This document shows positions 1-31,545 of a DNA stretch of 64,000 nucleotides, piece after piece. A program made the translations under genes and the position numbers. Position 1 is the first letter of the stretch; each line of letters begins with the position of its first letter. The DNA is taken from contig CAZKUN010000013.1 in NCBI GenBank assembly GCA_964555935.1, positions 4,539 to 68,538 of the forward strand, given 5' to 3'. The notes beneath the pieces are model-generated. The model was not told where the DNA came from. It was given only the letters and a program-made list of their open reading frames with translations, and did no database searches. This DNA comes from an uncultured Armatimonadia bacterium (GTDB lineage Bacteria; Armatimonadota; Zipacnadia; Zipacnadales; VGFC01).

Positions 1-329
1 CTGGGCGTGAGGGCGCGCCCATCCTGCTCCTCCGCGCTTACCCCAACGGTCACTTCGAGAGTAGTCAGGAGGCCGGAGCGACCGGTCGAGATGCGCGCCG
101 GGCCATGGACGGCGTGCGATGCGAGGTAGGTACGAGCGACGGGAAGTGGACGACCGAGTGGGCGATTCCATTCGAGTCATTGCGGATCGCCCCGAAGGTC
201 AGTCGTCGGTTCGAGTTCAACATCTCCGTGCGCAAGCTGGCCCCCGAGGGTGTCTGGCTGATGTGGCGCGGGACGGGCGCGCATACGTGGGATATCGATA
301 GAGCCGGTATTCTGAAACTCGCGAAATAG
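1..329 (+). CDS. C-terminal fragment of a protein truncated by the window start; possible CBM9-like carbohydrate-binding module
   Basis: Frame 3 is open from nt 3 with no stop until 329. The listed ORF 105..329 is the tail of a longer ORF. A W/F-rich motif (GKWTTEWAIPFESL) is reminiscent of carbohydrate-binding modules. Confidence 0.45.
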   Translation, partial: GREGAPILLLRAYPNGHFESSQEAGATGRDARRAMDGVRCEVGTSDGKWTTEWAIPFESLRIAPKVSRRFEFNISVRKLAPEGVWLMWRGTGAHTWDIDRAGILKLAK

Positions 330-348
330 TCGCAATGGAGGACCGAAA

Positions 349-1638
349 ATGTCTGCGAAGCTGGCTGTGCTGGGCGGCGACCGGATCGTGCCGGAGGGAG
401 CCGTCAAACCGTGGCCGCATGTGACGGATGAGGACCGCGCAGCGGTGGCCGCTGTCTTGGCCGGGGATGACCTGGGCGAGCAGAGGCGCATCAACGAAGA
501 GGGCATCTCCAAGGAGTTCGGTGAGTACATCGGCGCGGAGCACGTCGTGCCCGTCAGCAGTGGCACGGCCGCGCTGCACCTCGCGGTTGCTGGCTGCGAG
601 ATCGGGCCTGGCGACGAGGTCATCTGCCCCGCGTTCACCTACTGGGCAACGGCCGCGGCTGTCCTCCACCACAACGGGATCCCTGTCTTCGTCGATGTTG
701 AGCCCGAGACGTGGACGATGGACCCGGCTCTGCTTGAGGGCGCCATCACGCCGCAAACGAAAGCGATCATGCCCGTGCACATCCACGGGATGCCGGCGGC
801 GATGGATGCGATCATGGAGATCGCCGCGAAGCATGACCTGAGAGTCATTGAGGACTGCGCCCAGGCCCATGGCGCGACGTTCAAAGGGAAGAAATGCGGA
901 TCGATCGGCGACGCGGCGGGATTCTCGCTGCAGTCGAGCAAGCTGCTCACGACGGGGAGTTACGGTGGGCTCTTCGCAACCAATAATGATGAGATCGCCC
1001 ACGTCGCGAAGACGCTCCAATACCTCGGCGAGATCGTGATCCCGGGCCGCGAGCGCACGGATCAGCGCTACAACGCCACCGGCCTCGGTTGGATGTACCG
1101 CGGGGATGTCATGGGCCAGGCATTCACTCGCAGCCAGCTCAAGCGGCTGGATCACTATAACGCGCTCCGCGGGAAGAACTGCGAGCTGCTCACCAGCCTC
1201 ATCAAGGACGTTCCCGGCATCCTGACCCCGCACGTCCCCGACGACCGCGGGATGCGGTGGTACACCTACGCCGTGCGGCTTGCGCCGGAGCAACTCGGGC
1301 TGGACGTGCCGGCGCCGGAGGTCCGCGAGCGGGTCGAGAAGGCCTTGGGCGCCGAGGGCGTTCCCGTCGGTCGCTGGCAGCGGATGCCCGTCCCGATGCA
1401 AGACATTTTCCAGTCTCGGGCCGGCTACGGTAAGGGTTGCCCATGGGATTGCGGCCACTACCACGGCGACGTCACCTACGAGATCGGGGACTACCCCGTC
1501 TCGCAGGCGTTCGTCGACTCGAACATGTACGTGTCTGGCATCTGGCCGCCGAACGAAGAGGGCCTGATCCGTCAGTTCGCAGAGGCCATCGAGAAGGTCA
1601 TGAGCCAGCCGGAAGAGCTGATGAAGGTCGAGCTGTAG
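349..1638 (+). CDS. DegT/DnrJ/EryC1/StrS-family PLP-dependent sugar aminotransferase
   Basis: 429 aa with the family hallmarks: VPVSSGTAALHLA, DEVICPAFTYWATAAAV, VIEDCAQAHGA, and the PLP-lysine motif GFSLQSSKLL. RBS-like GGAGG lies upstream of the ATG. Confidence 0.9.
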   Translation: MSAKLAVLGGDRIVPEGAVKPWPHVTDEDRAAVAAVLAGDDLGEQRRINEEGISKEFGEYIGAEHVVPVSSGTAALHLAVAGCEIGPGDEVICPAFTYWATAAAVLHHNGIPVFVDVEPETWTMDPALLEGAITPQTKAIMPVHIHGMPAAMDAIMEIAAKHDLRVIEDCAQAHGATFKGKKCGSIGDAAGFSLQSSKLLTTGSYGGLFATNNDEIAHVAKTLQYLGEIVIPGRERTDQRYNATGLGWMYRGDVMGQAFTRSQLKRLDHYNALRGKNCELLTSLIKDVPGILTPHVPDDRGMRWYTYAVRLAPEQLGLDVPAPEVRERVEKALGAEGVPVGRWQRMPVPMQDIFQSRAGYGKGCPWDCGHYHGDVTYEIGDYPVSQAFVDSNMYVSGIWPPNEEGLIRQFAEAIEKVMSQPEELMKVEL

Positions 1639-1647
1639 GCCGACGCG

Positions 1648-1717
1648 CAACGAGGCAGGCGCCTCGTTGCCACGCGACGGAGTAACGAAAGGGGCAGCGC
1701 CTTCAGGCGCTGCCCCT
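1648..1717. terminator. Two tandem GC-rich hairpins between convergent genes (probable bidirectional terminator)
   Basis: caacgaggc-aggc-gcctcgttg forms a 9-bp stem. aggggcagcgcc-ttca-ggcgctgcccct forms a 12-bp perfect stem followed by tgtagcttct. The region sits between the 3' ends of 349..1638(+) and 1742..2842(-). Confidence 0.55.
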
Positions 1718-1741
1718 TGTAGCTTCTGATGCGAAGACCGC

Positions 1742-2842
1742 TTACAGGTCGACCATCCCGCCCGTCTCCAGGCTCTCATGCACGCCCGACGCGATCCGGG
1801 TCGCCTCCAGGCCATCGACGCCGTCTGGGTACGGGGCGAGTTCATCGATCTTCGCGCCCTCGAGCAGGACGTTCACGTTCTCGGCGAAGTCGGCAATGCT
1901 GATGATCCCGTAGCCATCGAAGACCTCGCGCCCCTGCTTGTCGACCCGCGGACGCAGGAAGCTCATGTTGTGGGTCATCATCCCGTCATTCTCAGAACAC
2001 GAGACCGTGCCACGATCCTGCGAGTCGCACTCGATCATGCCCTCCGTGCCCACCACCCGGATGCCCTGGTTTACGATCGCCTCGAAACCGTCCGGCAGGA
2101 TCCAGCTCGAATCGAACGTGACGCACGCGCCGTTGTCGAACTCGACCTTGGCCTGGATCGAGTCATACGTGTCCACGCCAAGACCCGATAGCTTGCCCTT
2201 GCAACCCGTGGCCCACACGCGCTTGCCATTGGCGTCCATGAGGAAGCGGGCGAGGTCGTAGAAGTGGATGCCCAGGAACCAGCCGGGCGAGCTGTTGCGG
2301 GCCCAGCCGGGGAACCAGTCGCGCGGGACCTCAATCCGGTCCTCCATGTGGGCGTAGCCGTATTGGATCTTCCCGATGTCGCCCTCGCTGATCTTGCGCT
2401 TCATCTCCAGATGGTACTCGTCGAAGCGCTTGTGGAAATCGACCTGCAGCAGGATGTCGTTCTTGGTCGCCGCGTCGATCATCTCCTGACATCCCGCGAC
2501 CGTCACGTCGAGCGGCTTCTCGCAGAGGATATGCACGCCCGCGTCGGCGCACGCAATGACGATATCCTTGTGGAGAGGATCGGGAGTCACGACGGTCACG
2601 CCGTCGAGGTTCTCCTTCTCCAGCATCTCCTTGTAGTCCGTATACACGCTCATCCCGAACTCGGCCTGACGTTCGGTGAGCAGCTCCTCGTTGATGTCAG
2701 CCGCCGCGACGAGTTCGGCCACGCCGAGGTAACCGAGCTGGCGGAACGTGCGAAGATGGTTGATACCAAATGTCCCAACGCCGATGACGCCTATGCGGGC
2801 TTGTGCCAAGGGTGAACCCTCCGTTTTCGGAAAGAAAGGCAT
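1742..2842 (-). CDS. Gfo/Idh/MocA-family NAD(P)-dependent oxidoreductase
   Basis: N-terminal Rossmann motif IGVIGVGTFG plus EKPL and C-terminal alpha/beta-domain motifs. The track ORF extends to 2938, but the internal ATG at 2842 (MPFFPKTEG...) removes the overlap with the upstream gene and precedes the GxGxxG. Confidence 0.85.
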   Translation of the reverse strand: MPFFPKTEGSPLAQARIGVIGVGTFGINHLRTFRQLGYLGVAELVAAADINEELLTERQAEFGMSVYTDYKEMLEKENLDGVTVVTPDPLHKDIVIACADAGVHILCEKPLDVTVAGCQEMIDAATKNDILLQVDFHKRFDEYHLEMKRKISEGDIGKIQYGYAHMEDRIEVPRDWFPGWARNSSPGWFLGIHFYDLARFLMDANGKRVWATGCKGKLSGLGVDTYDSIQAKVEFDNGACVTFDSSWILPDGFEAIVNQGIRVVGTEGMIECDSQDRGTVSCSENDGMMTHNMSFLRPRVDKQGREVFDGYGIISIADFAENVNVLLEGAKIDELAPYPDGVDGLEATRIASGVHESLETGGMVDL

Positions 2843-2876
2843 GGTCGCGGCTATTCGCGCCCACGCGCGATGACGA

Positions 2877-4247
2877 CTACGCTCCACACCAATTGACCAG
2901 TGACAGCGCGAGCGCCTTGGCGCCCGCGAGAATCTCATCGACGCTAATGCTCTCGCCGTCGGCGTGGGCCTGCCGGATGTCCGATGGCCCGAAGACGATG
3001 GTCGGGAGGTCGGCGAGCGCCTTGTACAGCCGCGCGTCGCAGCTCACGTTCCAGCCGTAGATGTCATTCTCGATCCCCGCGTTCTTGCAGGCCTCGTGCA
3101 CCGCGACCGGCAACGGGTGATCGGCTGGGATCTCGTACGCGTCGTTGTGCAGCTTGGGGAACTCCAGCGTGAAGTGCTCTTTCAGCCATTCGTCGTCCGT
3201 CGACATGATGGCGTCGAGCAGTTCCTTCCGGATGTCTGACATTCGCGCGTTGGGCAGGAAGCCGACGCCGCCCTCGAGCACGCACTTGTCCGAGACCATC
3301 GACGGCCAGCCGCCAGCCTCGATGGTGCCGATGCAGAGCTGGACGGGATTGTCGTAGCGCGCGAACAGCGGCTGGCCCTGGCTCGCGGCGATCAGACGCT
3401 CCTCATACTCGAGCATCAGCCGAATCGCTTCCATCATCTTCTCAATGGCGTTGACGCCCTCGTGGCGCCGGCCCATGTGAAGGCTCTTGCCGGTGGTGGT
3501 CGCGCGGAACCAGATCGCGCCGCGATTCGCGGGATGGATCTGCATATCCGTGCCTTCGAGGACGATCACGCCGTCAGCCTTGCAGCCCTGGCGGATCAGC
3601 GCCAACGCTCCGTTCCCGCCGACTTCCTCCTCGATCACAACCTGACACTCCACATCGCCCTTCAGTTGGATACCGAGGTCATCCAGCGCCCGCAGGGCCA
3701 GCAGCATCGTGACAATCTGCCCTTTGCAGTCGGTCGCGCCGCGGCCGATGATGCGATCGCCGTCGATGACGGGATCGAACGCCTTGTCCCAACCTCCGGC
3801 CGGCACGACGTCGCTGTGCGTCTGCAGGATCACGCTGCGTCCGCCGCCGGTCCCCTCGCGGCTGGCTACGAAGTTGTGGCGGCCGGCGTATGGTCCCTCG
3901 TTGTCGCCGTGGGAGTACTCCTCATCGTCAAATAGCGAGTCGGGGATCGGCCGATATTCGCCAGGCAATCCATGTTCCTTGAACAGCTCCATGACGCGGG
4001 CTTGAATGCCAGGCTCATTCCCTTGGATGCTGTCAAAGCGGATAAGCTCGGGAAGGGAACTGAAGATGAAATCGCGGTAACCGTCGATGGTCGTGGATAG
4101 CTGGGTCAGATCCGTATCCGCCACTTCGGGTGCGCTCCTCACGTGCTCGGGGCTGAAGACAGGTCCGAACGTTCCCCGCGCGAGGGGGCATTCCTTCCGA
4201 GGTCGGCTGATTATTGGCGAGGAAGCAGCGTTGGGAGGACTCAGCAT
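2877..4247 (-). CDS. M20-family metallopeptidase/deacylase (ArgE/DapE/acetylornithine deacetylase-like)
   Basis: HSDVVP, GRGATDCKGQ, VIEEEVGGNGA and GxIEAGG dimerisation-domain motifs are present. The exact start is uncertain; the first ~50 aa are non-conserved. Confidence 0.8.
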   Translation of the reverse strand: MLSPPNAASSPIISRPRKECPLARGTFGPVFSPEHVRSAPEVADTDLTQLSTTIDGYRDFIFSSLPELIRFDSIQGNEPGIQARVMELFKEHGLPGEYRPIPDSLFDDEEYSHGDNEGPYAGRHNFVASREGTGGGRSVILQTHSDVVPAGGWDKAFDPVIDGDRIIGRGATDCKGQIVTMLLALRALDDLGIQLKGDVECQVVIEEEVGGNGALALIRQGCKADGVIVLEGTDMQIHPANRGAIWFRATTTGKSLHMGRRHEGVNAIEKMMEAIRLMLEYEERLIAASQGQPLFARYDNPVQLCIGTIEAGGWPSMVSDKCVLEGGVGFLPNARMSDIRKELLDAIMSTDDEWLKEHFTLEFPKLHNDAYEIPADHPLPVAVHEACKNAGIENDIYGWNVSCDARLYKALADLPTIVFGPSDIRQAHADGESISVDEILAGAKALALSLVNWCGA

Positions 4248-4288
4248 CCTCCTTGCGTTGATGCAAGTGGCGAATTGCCGTCTGCTGA

Positions 4289-5071
4289 TTGGCGGGGAAC
4301 GGACGAGCTGCGATGGACGAACGGCGACCCACTCTCTCGGTCATCATGCCCGCGCTCGATGAGGAGGGCACGATCGAGGAAGTGATTCGAGAGGTCTACA
4401 GGCTGCCCAACGTCCGCGAACTCATCGCGGTCGATGACGGCTCGAGCGACCGAACGCCAGAGATACTGGCGGCCTTGCGCGAGGAGTTTGGCGACCGGAT
4501 GCAGACTGTCCGGCACGAGACTCGCCAGGGCAAAGGCGCCGCCGTCCGCGCCGGCATCCCTCTGGCTCGCGGCGAATTGACCGTCATCCAAGACGCCGAC
4601 CTCGAGTACGATCCTCAGGACCTCCTGAAGCTCAGCGACCTGTTCGAGTCGCCGGACGTGGCGGTGGCATATGGGTCGCGGATCCTCGATGGGAGCGGGG
4701 CCACCTGCAGCAAGTGGTTCTACCTCGGCGGACGAGGGCTCTCGGTCATCACTAACATGCTCTATTGGGCAGGCATCACCGACGAGCCGACCTGCTACAA
4801 GATGTTCCGCACGAGCTTGCTGCAGGGCATCCGGCTTCGCTGCACGGGCTTTGAGTTCTGTCCGGAGGTCACGGCGATCGTCCGGCGGCTGGGGTTCAGG
4901 ATCCACGAACTCCCCATCACTTACCGGCCCCGTGGGTTCGAAGAGGGCAAGAAGATCCGCTTCACCGATGGCCTCGAGGCTGTCTGGACCCTCCTCAAGT
5001 TCCGCTTCATGCCCAGGGCCGCGTTCACTGCCGACCCCGACCTCATCGAGCAAGCGCGCCAAGGTCGGTAG
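4289..5071 (+). CDS. GT2-family glycosyltransferase (dolichol/polyprenol-phosphate mannosyl/glucosyltransferase-like, soluble)
   Basis: LSVIMPALDEEGTIEEVI...LIAVDDGSSDRT...VIQDADLEYDP are typical of DPM1-like GT2s, including the DxD motif. The gene is divergent from the M20 gene. The start may be the downstream ATG at 4313. Confidence 0.8.
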   Translation: MAGNGRAAMDERRPTLSVIMPALDEEGTIEEVIREVYRLPNVRELIAVDDGSSDRTPEILAALREEFGDRMQTVRHETRQGKGAAVRAGIPLARGELTVIQDADLEYDPQDLLKLSDLFESPDVAVAYGSRILDGSGATCSKWFYLGGRGLSVITNMLYWAGITDEPTCYKMFRTSLLQGIRLRCTGFEFCPEVTAIVRRLGFRIHELPITYRPRGFEEGKKIRFTDGLEAVWTLLKFRFMPRAAFTADPDLIEQARQGR

Positions 5072-5160
5072 GCTGGGGGGCCTCTCGTCGTTCAGAAGCT
5101 GGCGACCTCCTGGTCTCTGCCATCAGTTCCGTCACCAACCATCCCCTGCCGTCTTGCGCC

Positions 5161-5253
5161 AATCCCTGTAAGAGGGGCTTTAGCCCCGACGCCGTAGACG
5201 TCGGCACGGGCAGAAGCAACGGCGTCGGGGCTAAAGCCCCTCTTACAGGGATT
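5161..5253. repeat. 35-bp perfect inverted repeat (arms 5161..5195 and 5219..5253) flanking a 23-nt loop; each arm also contains the nested hairpin aggggc-ttta-gcccct
   Basis: Read directly: aatccctgtaagaggggctttagccccgacgccgt ... acggcgtcggggctaaagcccctcttacagggatt. It lies between convergent genes 4289..5071(+) and 5326..6765(-). It is related to the hairpin+CTACnnCGGCG repeat family seen elsewhere in the window. Confidence 0.8.
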
Positions 5254-5325
5254 AGGAAGATGGGCGCGCAATGCGATGGATGCGACACGTGGTTCTCGCC
5301 GAAGACGTTGCGCCCTGTCGTTTCT

Positions 5326-6765
5326 CTACGCCTCGCTGATGCGCTTCAGCATGGCCGTCGAGCGTGGCCACTCCAGCTCAACCCCCTGTCCCACCAGCCT
5401 CGCCCGCAGTTCGTCTGTGGGGACCTCGCGTAGTGACACCTTCCGGTCTCGCGCGATCGCTGCGGCTGTGCCGGCGGCTTGGCCAAGCTGCATCATCGTG
5501 CGGGAGAGCCGACAACTCGATGCCGCGAGAGAGCTGAACCCGGCGGCGCGACACGCGATCAGCAGGTTCTCGGTACGCTTGGGCAGCAGGCAGCGATACG
5601 GAATGCCGTACGGCTGCTTCAGCTCCCCGCAACCATGCCCATGCCCCCCGTGCGTGTCCATGGCATGATCGGCGATCGCGACGATGTCGTCGTCCGTCTG
5701 CCCGCTCAGCCCGGCGAGCAGGTCGTGTTGCGTGAGCACCTTCTCGCAGACGATCCGGCGTGTCTCTCGCACTCCGAGGGCCGGCGCGATCCAGCTCCGT
5801 CGATAGCGCTGAAACTCGGGGAAGTTGACCTGGCTGTGGTGCCAGTGGGCAATGGACCGGCGCAGGCACTCCGCGTAAGCCGCTTCCGGTCCGAGCCGCA
5901 GGAACTCCTCTCCCTCCATCGTGGGGAGCACGTTTACGTTCCAGTCGCCGCACGGGTACTGCGTGACGCTCGCCCCCGGGAAGGATGCCCGCCACCAGCA
6001 GTCCTTCGGGACATCGGGCGGCAGGGCCTCGACGGACGGCTGACTGGTTGGCGTGATCCGATATATCAGCGTGATTCCATTCACGCGGTCGGTGGCTTCC
6101 TCGGGCGCGCCGGGCTCGCCGAACGCGTCCCTCCCCTCCTGGCCCATCATCTCCCCGCATCCGCAGGCCATTGCCAGCAGTCCGTCGCCCGTCGCGTCCA
6201 CGTAGACGTCCGCCTGCAAGGCGTTGCCACCATCAAGTCGGAGGTGAGCGATGCGCCCATCGCGCATGTCGGCATCGGCGAGGCCCGTGTCCGTGGCGAC
6301 GTCACACCGCCCCGTCTCGTCGAGCAACGCATGGACAACGGCGCGGTAGACATCGGGCTCAAACCCGACGCCGTGCCAGTGTTCGCGGACGAAGGCCTCG
6401 TCCTCAGCCATAGACCGCGCGCCGTGGCGGAGCAAGCTGTCAACGTACGAGCGGGTGTAATCGACCACCGCCTCGCCGCCCGGGTAGCGCTCTTCGCCGG
6501 GCCCGGGGCAAAGGCAGTGTCGACCAATCGTGTAGATGCCGACGGCTTGGGGGATTGGTCTGAGAGCGCGGTAGATGTCGAGCGGGATACCCGTTCCGCC
6601 GACGCCCGGCTCCCAGACGCTCACGCCGGCGCGCGTGGCGGTGCCGCCGATGACGGGCGCTTTCTCGACGAGGCAGACCGCAAGGCCCTCTCGCGCCGCC
6701 GCGAGCGCCGCGCCGATGCCCCCGCTTCCAGCCCCGATGACAGCGACATCATACTGACGTAACAT
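5326..6765 (-). CDS. FAD-dependent oxidoreductase (FAD_oxidored/PF12831-like)
   Basis: N-terminal dinucleotide-binding motif DVAVIGAGSGGIGAAL...EKAPVIGG, in a 479-aa protein. Confidence 0.8.
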   Translation of the reverse strand: MLRQYDVAVIGAGSGGIGAALAAAREGLAVCLVEKAPVIGGTATRAGVSVWEPGVGGTGIPLDIYRALRPIPQAVGIYTIGRHCLCPGPGEERYPGGEAVVDYTRSYVDSLLRHGARSMAEDEAFVREHWHGVGFEPDVYRAVVHALLDETGRCDVATDTGLADADMRDGRIAHLRLDGGNALQADVYVDATGDGLLAMACGCGEMMGQEGRDAFGEPGAPEEATDRVNGITLIYRITPTSQPSVEALPPDVPKDCWWRASFPGASVTQYPCGDWNVNVLPTMEGEEFLRLGPEAAYAECLRRSIAHWHHSQVNFPEFQRYRRSWIAPALGVRETRRIVCEKVLTQHDLLAGLSGQTDDDIVAIADHAMDTHGGHGHGCGELKQPYGIPYRCLLPKRTENLLIACRAAGFSSLAASSCRLSRTMMQLGQAAGTAAAIARDRKVSLREVPTDELRARLVGQGVELEWPRSTAMLKRISEA

Positions 6766-6917
6766 GACACCCCTTCCGCGTCTGGTGCCATGCGGGTTCG
6801 CGTGAAGCAGCTCCGTCGCCTGCCACCTGGGAGATTCGCTTCCACCCGTACCCTCCAGGCCATCATCGTGGTATACTCTTCCGTCGTCATCCCATACCGT
6901 GGTGGGCAGGTCGAGCG

Positions 6918-8870
6918 ATGCCGCTGCTTTATGCTGAGAATGTCACCAAATACTACGGAGCCGACCTGGTCCTCGAACGGGTCTCGCTGACGGTGGACGA
7001 GCGGGATCGGATCGGGCTGATCGGCGCGAACGGCACCGGCAAGACAACGCTGTGTCGGATGGTGCTCGGGCAACTGCAGCCCGACGATGGGCAGATCAGC
7101 CTCGTGGGTGGCACGACCGTTGGCTACCTCTCGCAGGATCCGGACTTCCCCGAGGGCCAGACGCTATGGGACGCCGCGATGGCGTGCTTCCCTGAGTTGC
7201 GCGAGATGGAGGACCAGCTAGCGAGTCTCGAGGAGCGGATGGCCGACCCCGGCGGCGCGGACTTGGACGAGTTGGTCGAGCGTCACGAGACCGTCCGGTC
7301 GGAGTTCGAGCGCGAGGGCGGGTACGACTACGAGAGGCGAACGCGCATCGTGCTGACCGGGCTGGGTTTTCGGGATGATGACTTCCACCGGCCGATCGAC
7401 GAGTTCAGCGGCGGCGAGAAGAACCGCGCGGCCCTCGCGACTTTGCTACTGACCGACCCAGACCTCCTGTTGCTCGACGAGCCGACCAATCATCTGGACA
7501 TTCAGGGCACGGAGTGGCTTGAGGGACATCTCCAGACCTATCGCGGCGCCGTCATCGCGATCAGCCACGACCGTCGATTCCTCAACGCGACCGCGCGCCG
7601 GATCATAGAAGTCTCAGGTCACGAGTTGGTCGAGTACACCGGCAACTACGACGACTACAATCAGCAGAAAGAGACCCGACTGCTGACCTACCAGCGCGAG
7701 TTCACGAAGCAGCAACGGGAAAAAGACCGCCAGCTCGAGTTCATCCGCTGGGCTCTGGGGACGCAGCAAGAGAAGCGGGTCCGCGCGGCGAAGAGCCGGA
7801 TGAAGCTCCTCGATAAGGTCGAATGGCTCGACCCGCCCGAGGGCCAGCGGCGGAAGATGACCCTGCGGTTCACGCCACGCATCCGGGGTGGCGACGAGAT
7901 CATCGACCTCGTCGATGTGGCGGCCGGATACGATGACCCGATCGTCAGCGGCGTCAATCTGCAGATGCGGCGGGGCGACCGAGTGGGGATCGTTGGGCCG
8001 AATGGTTGCGGCAAGACGACGCTCCTGAAGGCCATTCTCGGCGAGTTGGAGCCGATGTCGGGGCAGATGCGAGTTGGTCGCAGCATGGAGGTTGGCTACT
8101 ACGCCCAAGCCCGCATGGCGTTGACCCCAGCCAACACTGTGATGGAGGAGTTCGCCGAGGTTGTGAAGGACGCCAGCATCGGCGAGCTACGCAATCTGCT
8201 GGCGCGCTTCCTCTTCATTGAGGAGGACGTCTTCAAGCGAGTGGGGCAGTTGTCCGGCGGCGAGCAGAGCCGCCTGACGCTGGCGAAGCTCATCATGACC
8301 CGGCCGAGTTTCCTCGTGCTTGACGAACCGACGAACCACCTGGACATCGATTCGCGCGGCGCGCTTGAGAACGCGCTGGGGCTCTATACCGGCACGCTGC
8401 TCGTCGTATCTCACGATCGGTATTTCTTGGACGCGGTGGTCAACCGCATCGTGGCCATCGATGGCGAGACCTCGCGCGAGTTCGAGGGCAACTACACCGC
8501 CTATCGCGAGGCCTTGAGGCGCGAAGACGAGCTGAAGGAGCAGTCCAAGGCGGCGCAGCGGGCAGAGGAGCGGCAGCAGCGTCTTGAAGTCGAGAAGCAG
8601 GCGCGCAATAAACGCAAAGCCAAACGCGCGGCGGAGGAGTCATCGTCGGAATACAAGCTCCGGATACGAGCCGCTGAGCTTGAGAAGCAATCCGCCGAAC
8701 TCGAGGCGAGACTCGCCGAACTCGAGCAGCTTCTTGCCAATCCGGAACTCTACGATGAGCCCTCGCGGGTACAGGAACTCAACATCGAGCACCATCGGGT
8801 CCAAGGGACGCTGAAGGAGACCTACGCCGCGTGGGAGTCGGCTGTCGACCAACTGGGGGACGATGGGTAG
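6918..8870 (+). CDS. ABC-F family ATPase (two tandem ABC ATPase domains, no TMD; translation-factor type) with Lys/Glu/Arg-rich C-terminal coiled coil
   Basis: Two Walker A motifs (GANGTGKTT; GPNGCGKTT) and two ABC signatures (LSGGEKNRAAL; LSGGEQSRLTL). Linker, Walker B and H-loop are present. The C-terminus (approx 8530..8800) is a charged heptad-like region. Confidence 0.9.
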   Translation: MPLLYAENVTKYYGADLVLERVSLTVDERDRIGLIGANGTGKTTLCRMVLGQLQPDDGQISLVGGTTVGYLSQDPDFPEGQTLWDAAMACFPELREMEDQLASLEERMADPGGADLDELVERHETVRSEFEREGGYDYERRTRIVLTGLGFRDDDFHRPIDEFSGGEKNRAALATLLLTDPDLLLLDEPTNHLDIQGTEWLEGHLQTYRGAVIAISHDRRFLNATARRIIEVSGHELVEYTGNYDDYNQQKETRLLTYQREFTKQQREKDRQLEFIRWALGTQQEKRVRAAKSRMKLLDKVEWLDPPEGQRRKMTLRFTPRIRGGDEIIDLVDVAAGYDDPIVSGVNLQMRRGDRVGIVGPNGCGKTTLLKAILGELEPMSGQMRVGRSMEVGYYAQARMALTPANTVMEEFAEVVKDASIGELRNLLARFLFIEEDVFKRVGQLSGGEQSRLTLAKLIMTRPSFLVLDEPTNHLDIDSRGALENALGLYTGTLLVVSHDRYFLDAVVNRIVAIDGETSREFEGNYTAYREALRREDELKEQSKAAQRAEERQQRLEVEKQARNKRKAKRAAEESSSEYKLRIRAAELEKQSAELEARLAELEQLLANPELYDEPSRVQELNIEHHRVQGTLKETYAAWESAVDQLGDDG

Positions 8871-8926
8871 GTGACAGGACGAGGCGGGTGACGGTCGGCT
8901 GCGGCAAAGTGCCACCCGCCCGCGGA

Positions 8927-11080
8927 TCACGAGGCCTGCAGAACGGCGATGAGCCGCAACATGCGTTCGCGCAGTTCGCGCATGCGGCGGACGGTCAGTT
9001 CCGGAGCGGGAGTGTACTCCCAGATGTAGCGATCATCGAAGGGGCGGTCCGCGAAGCTATTCACGGGGGACATCCGGCGCGCCTCGGCGAGTAACGCTCG
9101 GGCCTCGGACGGGGCGGCGCCCGAGCGAGACCGGCATAGGCGCTCAAGCGTGCGGAGACAGCGGTAGTCCTCGACGCCCTCGCGTCGCCCCTCCCAGCCG
9201 ATCGTGCCTACGGGTCCCTGCTCCGAGGGTGCCATGTACCACTGACTCCAATCCTCGGGCACGGCCCATGTCCCGTCGGCGTCGCGGGTTAGGGGTTCGG
9301 TCGAGTAGTAGGCCCACTGGCCGAGGCCGCGCAGGCCCGCGCTCCACGTGTAGAAACCACATGCGTATCGGTCAAAGCGCGGGCTCTGGCCACGCTGGTT
9401 GCAGTCGTATCCCCACAGCTCCTTCCCCATCTCCTCTGCGCGGGCGACCGTCGCCTCATCCACGTCCGAGACGCCCGCGATCCACACATCGTAGAGTTCG
9501 CCCACATGCTCGACGCCGTACTGGCCTATGGCGGTGACGGTCCGAGCCTCGGGAACCTGTGAGTAGAGCCGGCCGAATGTCTCCCTCACTCCGGCAACGC
9601 GTTCTGCGTTGTTGGGCTCATCAGCCACGTAGAAGAGCAGAGGAGGCCACCCGAGAAGCTTCCGCCGCTGCAAGAGGTCCCGGACGGTGCCTGGGTCGCG
9701 GAATGCTCCCCAGCCCGGAATGCCCCCGCCGGCAGACAGCAGTATCAGCGGTCTGTCTGGAGCCACGAGCCCCGCGGCCTGTGCGAGCGCCAGCCGTTGC
9801 CGCAGGCCAAGGTAATGCCGAGCGTCGGAGGGCTCGTACTGCATGTCGAGGTCCAGCTCGACCCTAATGTCGCCGCCGCGCGTCTCGCGTTCGGGCGCGA
9901 CGTAGAGACTGACCGATGTCATCCCGTGCTCCGCCATGTCGCGGTAGTAGAGCCTCTGTAGTCGAGGTGATGCCATTGGCTCCGTCAGGTACACGTCGGC
10001 GTAATACATGAAAAACGACACATCGGCGGGATCGAGTTTCACGCGGGGCACGGTGACGGCGATGCTGATGGGGAATCGCCCGCGTTCAGTTTCCGCCTCC
10101 AACTCCAGTCGCAACTCCGGCAGTGACCAGTCCGGGGGCACGCGCACCCGCACGGCGTGCTGCAGGACGTCGCCCCGCTTCACGTCCTCGCGCGCGTGGC
10201 CCTGCTCGGACTCAGCAGGCGGCAGAAGCAGCAGAGGGTAGCGGATGTGTGCCTGGCTGTTGAGCTCGCGCTTGCTGTAACCGATGCGAAACAGCGCGAC
10301 GTCGTCGGCACGTAGCCCCGGGGGCAGGCCTTGGACGCGAAGACGCGCGCCCTCAATATCCCGCAGCGCGTGAAGCATCACCATGACGGTTTCGCGCTCG
10401 CCTGGCGGGCAAGTGGCTCTGATCTCCCCGTCGGGGGCGAGACACTCCTCGCGCAGGGGCATGTACCGCGCCGAGGTGCCCTGCTCCAGTGGGCGCGTGA
10501 ATGCGAGGAAGCCGAGGTCCGATTCGAGCGTCGTCGGGTCGACCGGCGGGTTAACGACGGGACTTACGTCGCCGATGCGAACGGAGTCATCCTGAACGAA
10601 AGTGATCCCGTCCCAGTGCGACTCCGGAGCGTACGACAGGAGCCCGATCTTAACGACGCTGTCAGTCTCCCGCGTCCGGAAGTCAAGCTTGAGTTCGGTC
10701 CATTCGGGGAACCTGGCCCAGCCCGTGGATGCGACACAGATGCCGTTGAGCACGGCGTCATACGCGACGAGCGAGTGGTGCCCGGCGGCCGGCGTGCGGA
10801 TCCAGGCTCGCGCGCGATAGCCCGTGTTGGGCTTTACCGTGATGGGCTGGTAGGCCAGGGCATACGCCGAGCCCTCCTCACGCTGCAGGCGCAGCCACCG
10901 GTCGCCGTCGGTCGCGTCATCTGTCTCCACCGTCGCCGTGACGTTCGTCGTGACGGCCCAGCCCTCGGGCAAACCATCGGCAACGGCCTCGAAGGACGGG
11001 TTGCTCGGAAGATTCGGCGCCCCCTGAGCGACGCCCGCTGACGCGCACAACCAAGCGGTCACGGCTATACAGGTAGTCAT
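8927..11080 (-). CDS. Secreted protein: N-terminal CBM4_9-like beta-sandwich plus TIM-barrel glycoside-hydrolase-like domain (DUF4091/GH123-like?)
   Basis: Signal peptide MTTCIAVTAWLCASAGVAQG. NPSFE...GWAV resembles CBM4_9 entry motifs. YVADEP and W/Y-rich C-terminal segments suggest a glycosidase-like barrel. There is a 4-bp ATGA overlap with the upstream gene (operon). Confidence 0.6.
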   Translation of the reverse strand: MTTCIAVTAWLCASAGVAQGAPNLPSNPSFEAVADGLPEGWAVTTNVTATVETDDATDGDRWLRLQREEGSAYALAYQPITVKPNTGYRARAWIRTPAAGHHSLVAYDAVLNGICVASTGWARFPEWTELKLDFRTRETDSVVKIGLLSYAPESHWDGITFVQDDSVRIGDVSPVVNPPVDPTTLESDLGFLAFTRPLEQGTSARYMPLREECLAPDGEIRATCPPGERETVMVMLHALRDIEGARLRVQGLPPGLRADDVALFRIGYSKRELNSQAHIRYPLLLLPPAESEQGHAREDVKRGDVLQHAVRVRVPPDWSLPELRLELEAETERGRFPISIAVTVPRVKLDPADVSFFMYYADVYLTEPMASPRLQRLYYRDMAEHGMTSVSLYVAPERETRGGDIRVELDLDMQYEPSDARHYLGLRQRLALAQAAGLVAPDRPLILLSAGGGIPGWGAFRDPGTVRDLLQRRKLLGWPPLLFYVADEPNNAERVAGVRETFGRLYSQVPEARTVTAIGQYGVEHVGELYDVWIAGVSDVDEATVARAEEMGKELWGYDCNQRGQSPRFDRYACGFYTWSAGLRGLGQWAYYSTEPLTRDADGTWAVPEDWSQWYMAPSEQGPVGTIGWEGRREGVEDYRCLRTLERLCRSRSGAAPSEARALLAEARRMSPVNSFADRPFDDRYIWEYTPAPELTVRRMRELRERMLRLIAVLQAS

Positions 11081-13896
11081 TTCGCAGCCGTCCAGTGGAT
11101 GGTGTTGGGCATCCGGAAGGTTGGGGCGCCTGGTATGGTTCGATGGGGGTGGTGCGTGTGCGCGGCGCCACGTCCGCCCTCGATGAGATCGAAGCCGGGA
11201 CGGTGTCGCAGAGCGATCGTCGCGCGTCCGTCAGGATTGGCTTGGACGCCGTCGACGGCCAGCGCATAGGTAGTTCCGTCTCCGAACTCGACAGTTACGC
11301 GTTCGTTGGGCAATCCCTCGCGCGCGGGAATCTGCGTATCCACAACAAGCGCGTCCTCATCGTCGCCCGCCTCGACGCAGAGCACGTCCACCACGTTCCC
11401 CTCCGCCGCCGGGGGAGCCGTGATGCTCTGGCCAGCCATCGCGACCTCCGTTCCGTCTACGAGGACCATCTCGGTGGGCTCGTCATCGACCACACGCGCG
11501 AAGGCGTAGCGTCCGGTCACTCGCAGGTCGATATTGGCAGCACCTACGCTGACATCCGGACCCGTGGTTAGGGCGTGGTAGTCAGTGAAGCCTTCGCCGC
11601 GGCAGACGATCCCGACGGCACCCGCTCCGTCGCCTTCGAGCGGCAAGCTCTCGACGCTGGTGAGCCTCGGCGCGTCCCGGAACGGCTCATGGACGGCGGC
11701 GAAGACGCTCTGTAGATCGGAGCCCTCTCGGCGCACGAGCAGCGCGGGCATCGTGTGGTCGAAGACCGCCGCGTTGCTCTCCTTGGCCCGGCGGATCGAC
11801 GGCAGCGCCGCAGTGTAGACCGTCGTGTCGGGCTGGCCCAATAGCGAGGTGTGGAGGCCGCGAGACGGATCGTCCGCATACCGGAACGTCGCCGACCACG
11901 CCTGCGCGCCGTCCCCGCGAGCCACGTCCTCGAACAGGCCATAGAGGGTGTTGACGCCGTCGACGACCGGGTTCCAGCTCTGGGCGATTGTATCCGTCCA
12001 CGGCCGCCGCGCCCAGCCCGGTGGGAGAAGACCCGCCGCATGGGGTTGCATCGGCAGACTGGCCTCCAGCGTCTGGTCGTAGTCGGCGCTGCCGTGGAGG
12101 CACCAGTCGTGCTTGTCCCCGCCCGTGACGCGGAAGACATCGACCACGTAGCCTCCTCCGCCGGGCAACGCCACGAGCGCGAGCGCTCTGCGGTACAGGG
12201 ATGCGATGTCGGGGTAGGCGCCCTCCGACGAGGCCTCGCAGAAACGCAGGAGATCGCCGCACCGTGCCCACGCCATGAGCGCGCCATCCGCGGGAGGGTC
12301 GTCGCCCGACGAGCGCTGATTGGCCTCATTCACGACCACCGAATTATGAGCAACCGTGCTGCATGCGAAGGGCCGCAATATCGTGTGCGTGTAGCCCAAG
12401 TCGGGCAGGAGTTGTCGGCCCGCTCCGAAGAGAAGCAGATCGAGAGCATCGGCATGTTGGTGTCCGTAGCCGCCTGAGAAGTGGAGGTTTGCTTGCACGC
12501 CGCTCTCGCCCGCGCCGACCCCGAGGATGGCATGCCCCATGGCCCACGCAAGTGCCGTGCCGACCGGCCCCTCGCGCGCCTCGGGGATGGGGCGACCGAG
12601 GTTGGCGGCGGGCCAGGCATCGTGGATGGGCGTGACCTCGCCGTCCGGCAACCGCATTCGGTTCAGCGCGGCGATCGACTCCTCGAGCATCGGGACATCA
12701 CTCGCGCCCGAGAATCTGTCGATGTGCAGACCGTCGATGGGGTTGACGTACCCCTCCGGGTCTGAGTAGCCCTTGAGCGGTCCTTCGACGCAGCTCTGCA
12801 GAGAGTAGACCGTTTGGGAGTGATACGATGGGGAGGCCTCGCGCCAGATGCCGTCCGGGTAGAACTGCCGCTCGAGGATCCCGTCCACGCGTCGCAGAGC
12901 GTCGTGGACGAACTCCGGCTCGCCGATGACCCGCCCGATCACCGCCAGCCCTCGTATGAGCGAGCCGTCCATGTTCCCCAGGTAGATCGGGAAGGTGCGC
13001 GTGAAGTTGGCGGTCGCCCGGTGGAATTCTTCAATGTTACGGCGGACATCGGTGCCCAGTTCATCTGAGAGAGCGTCAACCGCCTCGCTGTCGGCCACCC
13101 GGTCGTACGTGCGAGCGAGAGCGGGCGACATCTCCGAGTAGAACCAGTTGTCCAGGCCATCGCCGCGCAAGGTCGAGCAGTACGGGTATGGCGTGCTGTA
13201 TCCTGGGAGGTCTTTCGCCATGCCCGGCACGGGCTGCAATCCGTTGGGCGGTCTCGGCAGCGGCTGGGTGTCGAAGACCTTCATCGCGAACATCGACCAG
13301 TTCTCAATCCCATGCGGGCTGTAGTGCGGATACACCTCCGCCAGCCGGTTCAGGATGATCCCCGCCTGCCGCGCGTGCGGCTCGTCTCCCGTCGCGTGGT
13401 ATATCTTGGCCAGCGCGCCGGCCATGGACTCCATGTATCTCTTCTTGCAGTTCTCGACACGCATCTGCATGAAGTGCTTATAGCCGTCCTCGCCCTCCCA
13501 GTACCGGTAGACGTGCTCCTGTCCGGTGGAGTCGGTGACGCGCGTCTCCTTGTCCAGCGGGTACTCCTCGTTGGGGAAGACCATGTTGCAGAACTTGCAC
13601 TCGATCTGGTCCGGCTCCTCCGGCGACCAGAGCCAGTGGTAGGTATCCGAGACGTTGCCATCATCGCAGTTCGGGCAGAGGATGTGATAGAAGGTCGTTC
13701 GCGGAACGATGAACTCGTCGATCTGCTCGCGTCCGAGGGACATGACGTGCGTGGCCTGCTCTCGGAGCGAATCCACTTCGGCGTCAGTCAACTCCACCGG
13801 GAAGACGGGGTGTTTGACCGGATAGGCCATCGCGGAGGAACAGATCACCACGCTCATTAGGAGCGCCAGGCCACCGAGCATGTTCGCGTGGAGCAT
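11077..13896 (-). CDS. Heparinase II/III-like polysaccharide lyase (alpha/alpha toroid + beta-sandwich), secreted
   Basis: Signal peptide present. Hallmark GGYGHQHADALDLLLFGAGRQLLPDLGYTHT...HNSVVV matches the Hepar_II_III motif H.H.D......D.GY....HNS. There is an unusual N-terminal CxxC...CxxC insert. Confidence 0.8.
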   Translation of the reverse strand: MLHANMLGGLALLMSVVICSSAMAYPVKHPVFPVELTDAEVDSLREQATHVMSLGREQIDEFIVPRTTFYHILCPNCDDGNVSDTYHWLWSPEEPDQIECKFCNMVFPNEEYPLDKETRVTDSTGQEHVYRYWEGEDGYKHFMQMRVENCKKRYMESMAGALAKIYHATGDEPHARQAGIILNRLAEVYPHYSPHGIENWSMFAMKVFDTQPLPRPPNGLQPVPGMAKDLPGYSTPYPYCSTLRGDGLDNWFYSEMSPALARTYDRVADSEAVDALSDELGTDVRRNIEEFHRATANFTRTFPIYLGNMDGSLIRGLAVIGRVIGEPEFVHDALRRVDGILERQFYPDGIWREASPSYHSQTVYSLQSCVEGPLKGYSDPEGYVNPIDGLHIDRFSGASDVPMLEESIAALNRMRLPDGEVTPIHDAWPAANLGRPIPEAREGPVGTALAWAMGHAILGVGAGESGVQANLHFSGGYGHQHADALDLLLFGAGRQLLPDLGYTHTILRPFACSTVAHNSVVVNEANQRSSGDDPPADGALMAWARCGDLLRFCEASSEGAYPDIASLYRRALALVALPGGGGYVVDVFRVTGGDKHDWCLHGSADYDQTLEASLPMQPHAAGLLPPGWARRPWTDTIAQSWNPVVDGVNTLYGLFEDVARGDGAQAWSATFRYADDPSRGLHTSLLGQPDTTVYTAALPSIRRAKESNAAVFDHTMPALLVRREGSDLQSVFAAVHEPFRDAPRLTSVESLPLEGDGAGAVGIVCRGEGFTDYHALTTGPDVSVGAANIDLRVTGRYAFARVVDDEPTEMVLVDGTEVAMAGQSITAPPAAEGNVVDVLCVEAGDDEDALVVDTQIPAREGLPNERVTVEFGDGTTYALAVDGVQANPDGRATIALRHRPGFDLIEGGRGAAHTHHPHRTIPGAPTFRMPNTIHWTAAK

Positions 13897-14082
13897 GTAG
13901 GACCTCCAACGGCCGTCGATGCGGTAGTGGATGTCTGAGATCAGCTCCGCCCGCCACCCTCGTCCCCACCCGCTTCGCCCAGCGGCGTGGCTCCACCTCG
14001 CCTTGGCCGTCCAGCGGGCGAGGCGTGAGCGAGGAACCGGTGGCGGGAACGCGGAACATGCATGCCCATGCCGTCCGTGTCC

Positions 14083-14160
14083 GCGGGTCGCCCGACCCGC
14101 GAGAACTCACCCGGGATTGGGCGTGCGGGTCGGGCGACCCGCAGGCACGAACGACCGGGG
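14083..14160. promoter_or_regulatory. Pair of 14-bp palindromes GGGTC-N4-GACCC (gggtcgcccgaccc and gggtcgggcgaccc) ~25 bp apart, upstream of the amidohydrolase operon; the second is followed by gcaggcacgaacgac
   Basis: Read directly in the 280-bp intergenic region. The same palindrome+tail is found at 51483..51512 and 62290..62330. This is a candidate operator or a REP-like element. Confidence 0.5.
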
Positions 14161-14176
14161 ATGGGGAGTTACGCCC

Positions 14177-15772
14177 ATGAGCCTGAGGCTGTTCGACGCC
14201 CACTGCTACCTCGGCCGGTTCAAGCACCTCGACGAGCGCTACTTCCACGCGCGTGAAGACTTGCTCGCGGAGATGGATCACTTTGGCATTGCCGAGGCGC
14301 TCGTTTGCGACACGCTATCGCGCGAGTTGGACCCTCGAGCCGGTAACCCTCGCATCGTGGATCTGTGCAGGGACGAGCCCCGCCTCCACCCGTCGTGGGC
14401 GCTGGCCCCGCCCGTGCAGTCGCTGCCGTTCCCGCTTGACGAGTTGCCCTCGGCCATGGCCGACGCGGACGTGCGGGCTGTCCGGCTGTTCCCCGGCCAC
14501 CTGGAATTCACGCTCGACGAGTGGTGCGTCGGTCCAATCCTGGAAGTGATGCAAGACATCCGCGTGCCGGTCCTCATCGACCCAACGCCGGCCCTCAAGG
14601 CGGCGGGGCGAGACCTCACCGACTGGGACGCGATGGTCCGGCTGTGCAAGGCATTCCCGGATCTACCGATCATCGCCGCCGAACAGCGGTGGTACTGGCG
14701 CGATCGCACGTTCTACCCCGCGCTGGAGGCCTGCGAGAATCTTCACCTCGAGCTGAGCGCGTTCTGGATGTTCCGCGGCATTGAGTTCGTCTGCCGGGAA
14801 TATGGGGCGCATCGATTGCTGTTTGGCACGAGGCTGCCGGTCCGAGACGCGGGGGCAACGGTGGCGCAACTCCAATACGCAGAGATCTCCGACGAGGAGA
14901 AGCAAGCCATCGCGGGGGACAATCTGCGCCAGATGCTCGACCTCGATCCCCAGCCGATCGAGCAGGTCGCGCCGGACCCCGGCCTCGGCACGTGGTACTC
15001 GGCAGTCCGGGCGGCCCAAGAACCCTTCGCGGGCGAGACGCTGGTCGACATCCACGCGCACATCGGCCCGGGCTCACCGTACTTTCTCCCGGATTCCGAA
15101 CCGGACCAACTCGTCCGCCAGATGGACCGACACGGCATCAGCAAGATGGTGAGCTTCGCCTTCGCCGGGATGAACGCGGACTGGGCCTGGGGCAACGACT
15201 TCGCGCACCAGGCGGCCTGCGATCACCCCGGCCGGATCCTGCCGCTCGCCCAAGTGAATCTGTGGGATGATGCGGAGATGACTCGCGAGATGGAGCGCTG
15301 CTGCGACGAATTCGGCTTCTGGGGCGTGAAGCTGCACCCTTGGTGGAACGAATACCCCGAGACGGGCGATCATGTCAGGCGGTGCTGCGAGTTCGTCAAC
15401 GATCGAAAGCTCATGTTGCTCAACCACCACTGGGGCCCGCCCACCGCCCTCGACGAGATCGCCAAGGACTGTCCGAACGCTCAGCTCATCGTCGGACACT
15501 TGGCTCTGGATGCCGAGTACGCGCGGGTGATCAATGAGAACGACAACGTGCACATCTGCACGTGCCTGCCGGTCCTGCGAGGCGAGGTCGAGCAAGCGGT
15601 GAAGCTGATCGACACGAGCAAAATCATGTTTGGCTCGGATGTCCCCGACCTGCCCATTCCCATCGGCTTCGGATCGATTCTCTACGCGAGGATCGATGAC
15701 GAGGCGAAGCGCGCCATCATGGGCGTAAACGCTCAGCGACTACTGGAGAAGATCACATGCGCGAAAACATGA
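14177..15772 (+). CDS. Tandem-fused double amidohydrolase-2 (PF04909-like metal-dependent TIM-barrel hydrolase; sugar-lactonase/decarboxylase family)
   Basis: Two repeats each begin with a metal-binding motif (LFDAHCYLG and LVDIHAHIGPGSPYF) and carry C-terminal HxxW/D motifs. The start is reassigned to the ATG at 14177 (MSLRLFDAH), which has a GGAG RBS. The upstream part of track ORF 13931 overlaps repeat elements. Confidence 0.75.
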   Translation: MSLRLFDAHCYLGRFKHLDERYFHAREDLLAEMDHFGIAEALVCDTLSRELDPRAGNPRIVDLCRDEPRLHPSWALAPPVQSLPFPLDELPSAMADADVRAVRLFPGHLEFTLDEWCVGPILEVMQDIRVPVLIDPTPALKAAGRDLTDWDAMVRLCKAFPDLPIIAAEQRWYWRDRTFYPALEACENLHLELSAFWMFRGIEFVCREYGAHRLLFGTRLPVRDAGATVAQLQYAEISDEEKQAIAGDNLRQMLDLDPQPIEQVAPDPGLGTWYSAVRAAQEPFAGETLVDIHAHIGPGSPYFLPDSEPDQLVRQMDRHGISKMVSFAFAGMNADWAWGNDFAHQAACDHPGRILPLAQVNLWDDAEMTREMERCCDEFGFWGVKLHPWWNEYPETGDHVRRCCEFVNDRKLMLLNHHWGPPTALDEIAKDCPNAQLIVGHLALDAEYARVINENDNVHICTCLPVLRGEVEQAVKLIDTSKIMFGSDVPDLPIPIGFGSILYARIDDEAKRAIMGVNAQRLLEKITCAKT

Positions 15773-17079: not shown

Positions 17080-17085
17080 GGAGAG

Positions 17086-18237: not shown

Positions 18238-18288
18238 GATGCGTTGGGACCATTGTGCGCGACCTACCAGCCGCCTCGGAGGACCCAC

Positions 18289-23598: not shown

Positions 23599-23619
23599 TT
23601 GCGGCCTCCCGAAGGCGCG

Positions 23620-31523: not shown

Positions 31524-31545
31524 GGGTGGGTGGACGGCGACGGCC

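Follow-up and report, generated by a model that had tools for sequence, protein, structure and literature searches.

Gene organization at positions 349-4247

We analyzed a 64,000-nucleotide stretch of DNA from an uncultured Armatimonadia bacterium of the Zipacnadales (contig CAZKUN010000013.1, positions 4,539 to 68,538), referred to here as the window, and within it positions 349-4247, where three genes lie side by side: a long-form DegT/DnrJ/EryC1/StrS aminotransferase gene (DegT1), a Gfo/Idh/MocA oxidoreductase gene (Gfo1) and an M20 metallo-deacylase gene (M20) (Table 1). An initial annotation made from the sequence alone had treated these genes as one functional module. The three family assignments hold in Pfam searches, and for M20 with TIGR01910 as well. 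The open reading frames (ORFs) also lie where that annotation had placed them, except at the 3' edge. The raw ORFs of Gfo1 (1742-2938, minus strand) and M20 (2877-4247, minus strand) correspond to shorter products in public contigs of the same organism, and the edge at 4247 is that of an over-long ORF, as the public gene calls end M20 at 4124. Active-site motifs can be read off each translation: SLQSSK with the Schiff-base lysine in DegT1, GVGTFG and EKP (CEKP) in Gfo1, and HSD, GATDCKG and IEEEVGG in M20. These motifs are consistent with all three proteins being active enzymes.

DegT1 is the final gene of a plus-strand operon whose start falls outside the window. In public contigs of the same organism, the plus-strand order is a 748-aa gene, an 895-aa beta-helix/CBM9 gene and DegT1. 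The window contains the 3' end of the 895-aa gene (its frame-3 translation ends in ILKLAK and a stop), while the entire gene is found on L001 at 3266-5953 and matches Beta_helix (E-value: 3.5e-15) and CBM9_1 (E-value: 9e-4). At its junction with DegT1, a TAG stop (327-329) is followed by GGAGG (337-341) and an ATG at 349, leaving a 20-bp gap. Signal peptides were identified in both upstream proteins (N-terminal in the 895-aa protein), and none was identified in DegT1.

The genes for DegT1 and Gfo1 converge on a 103-bp spacer that contains two perfect GC-rich hairpins, one 9 nt past the DegT1 stop codon and the other 24 nt past the Gfo1 stop on the minus strand, and the intergenic fold has a z-score of -5.35 (that is, its folding energy is 5.35 standard deviations under that of shuffled controls). 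A scan of consensus promoters and terminators found nothing; it misses both hairpins because neither has a T tract. Hairpins without a T tract are common in DNA of 65% G+C, which is the G+C content of the window. The two hairpins are putative terminator-like structures, and DegT1 and Gfo1 are predicted to be transcribed separately.

Separate conservation of DegT1 and the M20-Gfo1 pair

The gene neighbourhoods of DegT1 orthologues were compared in 20 non-redundant loci at 48-100% identity among the matches listed, source included, of which 19 lie outside the source (48-80%). Orthologues in this 48-80% range are common in Armatimonadota, Zipacnadales, Poribacteria and Planctomycetota. M20 is present in none of the 19 non-source loci (0/19). 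The source and L096 are the only loci with a Gfo gene within 4 kb of the orthologue, and the L096 protein is just 22% identical to Gfo1. In the locus of the closest of these orthologues (L090, 80% identity), the order beta-helix gene then DegT gene is kept, and the convergent gene downstream is URO-D-like, with no Gfo gene there. Other neighbours vary (GH2, GH42, heparinase-like and CBM genes, as well as GluRS/GlnRS in Poribacteria). ORF calls in high-G+C loci gave antisense artefacts, and clusters were used only if supported across loci. This clustering identified no neighbour common to most DegT1 orthologue loci; the recurrent neighbours are mini-ceramidase-like genes (4 loci), URO-D-like genes (4 loci) and beta-helix genes (2 loci).

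The M20-Gfo1 pair has a conserved context of its own. In both L174 (7043-10362) and L175 (7004-11020), the gene order is thrB, M20, Gfo, with an additional 200-aa ORF between M20 and Gfo in L175. The proteins of L174 and L175 are 75% and 62% identical to M20 and 82% and 68% identical to Gfo1, respectively, and the homoserine kinase (thrB) passes TIGR00191. No DegT gene is present within 8 kb of the pair in either locus. L174 also contains alanine racemase, an acetylornithine-type class III aminotransferase, hisG and riboflavin genes; it is from the same assembly as the DegT1 orthologue locus L004 (GCA_052745275.1), on a separate contig. The window has two Gfo genes per roughly 50 genes (~4%), so that a Gfo neighbour arising by chance is not rare (approximately 8% for any gene), and the DegT1-Gfo1 adjacency is no more than chance can give.

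Because of the separating hairpins, the unlinked DegT1 orthologues, the separate pairing of M20 with Gfo (and thrB) and the sufficiency of chance, we do not read the three genes as one unit, and the functional module of the initial annotation is not upheld. We consider it probable, if far from certain, that positions 349-4247 are the junction of two independent transcription units that abut here by chance. Each of these units is conserved separately and the junction between them is not. Several points weigh against this interpretation. Convergent neighbours can still have a functional link. Across the wider DegT family, Gfo is the commonest neighbour (32 of ~165 loci, mostly adjacent and co-directional), and operons with DegT, Gfo and hydrolase genes exist in L013, L028, L022 and L048, so that a functional link may yet hold at this locus. 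The M20-Gfo orthologue contexts examined number two and are from related lineages, and shared ancestry could therefore explain part of the conserved order. Finally, the tree described below is a rough distance tree with no support values.

In the two-unit interpretation, the first unit (plus strand) would comprise the exported 748-aa protein, the exported 895-aa beta-helix/CBM9 protein and the cytoplasmic DegT1, and would end at the hairpin. As expected for its family, DegT1 would use lysine-bound pyridoxal 5'-phosphate (PLP) to move an amino group from glutamate or glutamine to a ketone, or the reverse, and its substrate may come from the action of the co-transcribed exported proteins. The second unit (minus strand) would comprise the ArgE/DapE-type deacylase followed by Gfo1, a pair that elsewhere lies directly downstream of homoserine kinase, in the company of genes for amino-acid and cofactor biosynthesis.

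URO-D-like (PF01208) genes lie no more than two genes from DegT1 orthologues in L086 (13556-14620), L088 (10640-11647), L090 (2461-3714) and L093 (9780-10880), and the window has one at 62343-63437 (minus strand), 60 kb from DegT1. As these genes are approximately 30% identical to each other and the window member is 60 kb away, they probably belong to an abundant paralogous family. A PF12831 FAD-dependent oxidoreductase gene (5326-6765, minus strand) lies approximately 3.7 kb from DegT1, and a member of this family that is 26% identical lies in L004 (1070-2320), approximately 3.2 kb from the DegT1 orthologue of a Zipacnadales metagenome-assembled genome (70% identity to DegT1).

DegT1 and its nearest relatives

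DegT1 matches PF01041 with 267.7 bits (cut-off: 19.8), and its sequence is 100% identical to that of a protein from an Armatimonadota metagenome-assembled genome. The Schiff-base lysine (K198) and the PLP-binding aspartate (D169) do not vary across 15 DegT1 orthologues, and K198 aligns with the lysine of Fic25. Scores against the NCBIfam equivalogs PseC, LegC, WecE, ArnB, RfbH and DesI are only 119-169 bits (cut-offs: 375-650), and the second DegT protein of the window, DegT2, is likewise below the cut-off of the equivalogs for aminotransferases acting on nucleoside diphosphate (NDP) sugars. When DegT1 was compared with proteins of solved structure, the ranking was Fic25 (300 bits), Ser5 (202), perosamine synthase (188), 2-deoxy-scyllo-inosose aminotransferases (183-184), WbpE (147), ArnB (129) and NtdA (108).

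The last of these is relevant to the initial annotation, which had likened Gfo1 and DegT1 to NtdC and NtdA of the kanosamine pathway, a Gfo/Idh/MocA dehydrogenase and a DegT aminotransferase that act on a sugar that is not nucleotide-linked. This model is not supported by the comparison. The NtdA match is distant and partial (residues 54-227), while that of Fic25 is full-length. Gfo1 and DegT1 are convergent rather than paired, their orthologues are unlinked elsewhere (those of Gfo1 occur without DegT), and, unlike in the kanosamine pathway, no NtdB-type phosphatase is present here.

Fic25 (PDB 8GYH, 8GYI and 8GYJ; relatives AziC7 and Ser5) is the best solved relative of DegT1 (8GYH: 40% identity over 429 residues, E-value: 2.4e-88). 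Both are long-form, PLP fold-type I members of the DegT family with a C-terminal G[YF]GxGxP extension, and the Fic25 substrate is not nucleotide-linked. In ficellomycin biosynthesis, Fic25 aminates the ketone of an amino acid that is attached to an amino-group carrier protein, or AmCP (PMC11726168). Given this closest characterized relative, one might propose a carrier-protein pathway in which DegT1 aminates a carrier-bound keto amino acid and M20 frees the product in the manner of LysK. Such components do occur together: a plasmid of Pseudalkalibacillus hwajinpoensis carries a complete-looking carrier-protein cluster (L176, NZ_CP156675.1, 310105-318988) that unites LysW, a RimK/LysX-like ligase, a truncated and a full DegT (compare Ser4/Ser5), ArgC, a 606-aa M20 hydrolase, a split transketolase and an ATP-grasp protein. 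For the locus studied here, we regard this pathway as extremely improbable for three reasons. First, a scan for the AmCP tail motif EEDWGE was negative in both the window and L001 (6 kb upstream) and positive in the two Streptomyces controls (L012 and L015), which effectively refutes an AmCP-dependent reading. Second, Fic25 is adjoined by split transketolase and AmCP genes whereas DegT1 has neither; scans of the window proteins detected no transketolase, LysX, LysZ or LysY, and among the loci of relatives, transketolase is limited to L010, L012, L015 and their like. Third, the LysK-related model nearest to M20 (TIGR01902) scores 51.6 bits with a cut-off of 163, and the best 25 of the 44 NCBIfam matches of M20 do not include the [LysW]-lysine hydrolase model.

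DegT1 also differs from Fic25 in its cysteines. C183, C364 and C368 are invariant in the 15 orthologues, with C364 and C368 lying in the motif GCPWxC, while Fic25 has Y and V at positions 364 and 368. These three cysteines could form a metal or redox site.

Specificity for nucleotide-linked as opposed to other substrates cannot be deduced from sequence in these enzymes (10.1101/2021.09.04.459008). In a neighbour-joining distance tree of ~150 homologues from the fetched loci, DegT1 is on a long-form branch (~420-445 aa) together with the Fic25/Ser5 group. No genes for 4,6-dehydratase, GT1 or UDP-GlcNAc 2-epimerase (Epimerase_2) were found among the neighbours of the long-form branch genes, whereas the short forms (330-375 aa), which group with perosamine synthase, carry 4,6-dehydratase, GT1 and Epimerase_2 neighbours. 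Scans of 45 window proteins and of the 6 kb upstream detected no nucleotidyltransferase, 4,6-dehydratase or epimerase. DegT1 does not look like an enzyme of nucleotide-sugar biosynthesis; it appears to be a non-canonical, uncharacterized member of a widely conserved long-form orthologous group. The initial annotation was right to suspect that the DegT enzymes are not of the ordinary NDP-sugar type, judging by the low equivalog scores and, for DegT1, the position on the long-form branch apart from the NDP-4-keto-6-deoxy-sugar enzymes. Judging from its relatives, DegT1 most likely acts on a ketone or amine of sugar-like or polyol type with no nucleotide attached, and an NDP-4-keto-6-deoxy-sugar is an unlikely substrate.

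It might still be argued that the locus is biosynthetic, with Gfo1 and DegT1 acting as GnnA/GnnB or WbpB/WbpE do on a UDP-sugar (3-oxidation and 3-amination), the GT2 glycosyltransferase encoded divergently from M20 loading polyprenyl phosphate for an envelope glycan, and M20 trimming an acyl group like ArnD. The WbpB/WbpE/WbpD and GnnA/GnnB systems (UDP-sugar 3-oxidation, 3-amination and N-acetylation) likewise have a dehydrogenase and aminotransferase gene pair. The second NCBIfam model of Gfo1 is an archaeal UDP-GlcNAc 3-dehydrogenase (128 bits), WbpE is among the structural matches of DegT1, the GT2 protein resembles AglJ-, PpgS- and ArnC-type transferases, and triads of Gfo, DegT and hexapeptide acetyltransferase are found for the short-form relatives in L138, L152 and L171. 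However, the model scores are all far under their cut-offs, including every NCBIfam match of the GT2 protein, and no nucleotidyltransferase, acetyltransferase or flippase gene lies beside the genes in question. A GT2 counterpart was not found beside the M20-Gfo orthologues (L174 and L175) or beside other DegT1 orthologues; we treat the GT2 gene as a neighbour and assign it to neither unit. Furthermore, the enzymes of the known systems are short forms accompanied by acetyltransferases, epimerases and glycosyltransferases, while DegT1 is on the long-form branch, which is accompanied by hydrolases and importers instead. We therefore consider this biosynthetic role very unlikely.

The M20-Gfo1 pair

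Both the N- and C-terminal domains of a Gfo/Idh/MocA protein are present in Gfo1 (PF01408, 93.6 bits; PF22725, 62.6 bits; PF02894, 45.2 bits). Its top NCBIfam model is iolG (TIGR04380), and the best PDB match is 3ezy (deposited merely as "Dehydrogenase"), followed by inositol dehydrogenases and DgpA, with 1,5-anhydro-D-fructose reductase also among the matches. Although Gfo1 resembles the IolG and 1,5-anhydro-D-fructose reductase types by best model and structures, it is far under the IolG cut-off (148.7 bits, cut-off: 355), and no other inositol catabolism genes are located next to it.

M20 contains the Peptidase_M20 and M20_dimer domains and passes the ArgE/DapE model TIGR01910 (229.5 bits, cut-off: 217.6). 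It has the metal-binding and catalytic motifs of ArgE/DapE deacylases such as its best PDB match, the putative acetylornithine deacetylase 3pfo (E-value: 2e-43), but no equivalog model (ArgE, DapE or LysK) attains its cut-off. By analogy with these relatives, the M20-Gfo1 unit most likely processes an N-acylated amino-acid-like metabolite: M20 would strip the N-acyl group from such a compound, and Gfo1 would act on a related metabolite by oxidizing or reducing one of its hydroxyl or keto groups.

DegT2 and the gene sets of long-form relatives

The initial annotation had pointed to a second DegT paralogue in the window, and this gene, DegT2, is present as described (31% identity to DegT1). Its operon had been called "amidohydrolase-GH114-like". 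The first half of this description is correct, as the operon encodes a double Amidohydro_2 protein; the GH114-like label cannot be confirmed because the 440-aa protein to which it applies (unk440) has no Pfam, NCBIfam or PDB match. We also compared unk440 with the ceramidase-like proteins described below, and it is not a partner of that type. The DegT2 operon gene set recurs in L022, L026 and L048, together with importers, and the operon with its divergent heparinase II/III-like gene matches the pattern of these sets (Table 1).

On the long-form and intermediate branches of the tree, the third partner is a hydrolase (a ceramidase-like protein or an Amidohydro_2 pair) and not an acetyltransferase. 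Related long-form DegT genes also recur with a dehydrogenase gene and sometimes with importers or transporters. Amidohydro_2 (PF04909) proteins are often lactonases or decarboxylases, so that "deacylase" is one reading among others for the hydrolase partner. The ceramidase-like partner is an uncharacterized protein of ~435 aa with remote similarity to the neutral ceramidase catalytic domain (PF04734, below cut-off; NF041649, E-value: 3e-9; PDB 2zws, E-value: 5e-4); it occurs in 11-12 loci, including 4 in which it adjoins a DegT1 orthologue. The ~435-aa protein adjoins DegT homologues of 32-64% identity in bacteria and an archaeon, often with Gfo. This pairing of DegT with the ~435-aa protein is better conserved than anything in the 349-4247 block.

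These gene sets resemble uptake and degradation loci, and offer indirect support, by analogy, for long-form DegT enzymes acting on compounds that are taken up in free form; nothing specific about the M20-Gfo1 pair follows from them. Literature searches found nothing relevant on DegT enzymes in catabolic or polysaccharide-utilization loci, and the occurrence of the long-form branch in loci of the degradation type appears to be undescribed in the searchable literature.

The initial annotation had further suggested a catabolic direction for the three genes at 349-4247. In such a three-enzyme route, M20 would deacylate an amino sugar, DegT1 would transaminate it to a keto sugar and Gfo1 would reduce the product (or Gfo1 would oxidize first). 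The adjacency of the three genes is in keeping with this, as are the score and context of DegT1 (not those of an NDP-sugar enzyme), the co-directional operons of DegT, Gfo and ceramidase-like genes in L013 and L028, the sets with an importer, two Amidohydro_2 genes, DegT and Gfo in L022 and L048, and the window sulfatases that have an N-sulphoglucosamine sulphohydrolase C-terminal domain (SGSH_C). A hydrolase rather than an acetyltransferase as third partner also suits breakdown over synthesis. We nevertheless find this route unlikely, because the genes are convergent with two hairpins between them, the M20 and Gfo1 orthologues go with thrB and without DegT, and neither partner is present in the 19 non-source DegT1 orthologue loci. 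In addition, the Gfo proteins of the related triads share no more than 25-28% identity with Gfo1, and M20 passes an amino-acid deacylase model, with no precedent found for an amino-sugar deacetylase.

A broader proposal, which goes beyond the three genes, is that long-form DegT enzymes (DegT1, DegT2 and their relatives) carry out the deamination in an undescribed cytoplasmic route that handles amino sugars or amino-polyols freed by exported glycan-degrading enzymes. We put this forward as a speculative possibility, with considerable doubt. In this route, a hydrolase (amidohydrolase, mini-ceramidase or M20 type) would free the amine (or open a lactone), DegT would transaminate the amine to give a keto sugar, and a Gfo/Idh/MocA or zinc alcohol dehydrogenase enzyme would reduce this to a neutral sugar, bypassing phosphorylation and NagB-type deamination. 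In a chemically coherent variant, a free 2-amino sugar would be transaminated to a 2-keto aldose and reduced to a neutral hexose by a Gfo-type reductase. A precedent is 1,5-anhydro-D-fructose reductase, which also reduces glucosone. The recurring sets (importer, two Amidohydro_2, DegT and Gfo; heparinase-like lyase, symporter, DegT, Gfo and Amidohydro_2; DegT, Gfo and ceramidase-like) agree with this route but do not prove it.

Table 1. Features of the window and gene sets in the loci of DegT relatives (locus coordinates refer to the locus named)
Feature	Position	Strand	Evidence or remarks
Beta-helix/CBM9 gene, 3' end	1-329	+	frame-3 translation
DegT1, long-form DegT/DnrJ/EryC1/StrS PLP aminotransferase, 429 aa	349-1638	+	PF01041, E-value: 2e-79
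Perfect 10-bp GC-rich hairpin	1647-1670		inverted repeat
Perfect 14-bp GC-rich hairpin	1689-1718		inverted repeat and fold
Gfo1, Gfo/Idh/MocA NAD-dependent oxidoreductase, 355 aa	1742-2809	-	Pfam; second of M20-Gfo pair
M20, ArgE/DapE-family metallo-deacylase, 415 aa	2877-4124	-	Pfam, TIGR01910; first of pair
GT2, polyprenyl-phosphate-sugar-synthase-like glycosyltransferase	4313-5071	+	PF00535, E-value: 1e-27; divergent from M20
Hepar_II_III (heparinase II/III-like) gene	11077-13896		divergent from DegT2 operon
DegT2 operon	13931-20985	+	Pfam; junctions overlap or leave 6-bp gaps
Double Amidohydro_2 protein	13931-15772	+	DegT2 operon
Unknown 440-aa protein (unk440)	15757-17079	+	DegT2 operon
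DegT2	17086-18237	+	PF01041, E-value: 4.5e-63
FG-GAP/PQQ beta-propeller protein	18244-20985	+	DegT2 operon
L013 (archaeon): DegT, Gfo, ceramidase-like	5770-9369		~435-aa protein with DegT
L028 (Omnitrophota): DegT, ceramidase-like, Gfo	10001-13823		~435-aa protein with DegT
L087	8001-10623		~435-aa protein with DegT
L088	8007-10600		~435-aa protein with DegT
L104	8658-11263		~435-aa protein with DegT
L026: ROK, 2x Amidohydro_2, propeller, DegT, ceramidase-like			~435-aa protein with DegT
L020, L032, L069, L097, L099, L155			~435-aa protein with DegT
L022 (Anaerolineae): sugar-type ATP-binding cassette (ABC) importer, 2x Amidohydro_2, DegT, Gfo
L048: heparinase II/III-like, Na/solute symporter, DegT, Gfo, 2x Amidohydro_2

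Surroundings in the window

The description of the window as an island of carbohydrate-active enzymes and sulfatases is broadly right, as it encodes GH123-like, Hepar_II_III, GH141-like, GH16, GH42-like and beta-helix proteins and sulfatases with SGSH_C. The window is not purely degradative, given the polysaccharide biosynthesis cluster at 39950-47555, made up of six consecutive plus-strand genes for glycosyltransferases (GT1/GT4 and GT2); no nucleotide-sugar activation genes were found beside this cluster. The second Gfo/Idh/MocA gene of the window belongs to a minus-strand set at 22561-26145, where it is followed by genes for a xylose-isomerase-like TIM-barrel protein (AP_endonuc_2) and a sulfatase with SGSH_C. 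Pairing of Gfo with a xylose-isomerase-like protein is typical of 3-keto-glycoside oxidation/elimination pathways. Within 30729-35041, a glycyl-radical enzyme gene (31481-33757; PFL-like and Gly_radical, 758 aa) lies between a GH16 gene and a sulfatase gene, within the part of the window devoted to glycan degradation.

Implications

As the three genes at 349-4247 are read here as a juxtaposition, the direct importance of the arrangement is small: DegT1, Gfo1 and M20 are uncharacterized members of known families, and the three together do not constitute a system. The branch of long-form DegT enzymes is another matter. It is large, well conserved and uncharacterized, and its members routinely carry the annotation perosamine synthetase or dTDP-4-amino-4,6-dideoxygalactose transaminase. 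If these enzymes do deaminate free amino sugars or amino-polyols, many such annotations in Armatimonadota, Planctomycetota, Poribacteria and Chloroflexota would be wrong, and glycan degraders would have a route for recovering amino-sugar carbon and nitrogen that is absent from metabolic models.

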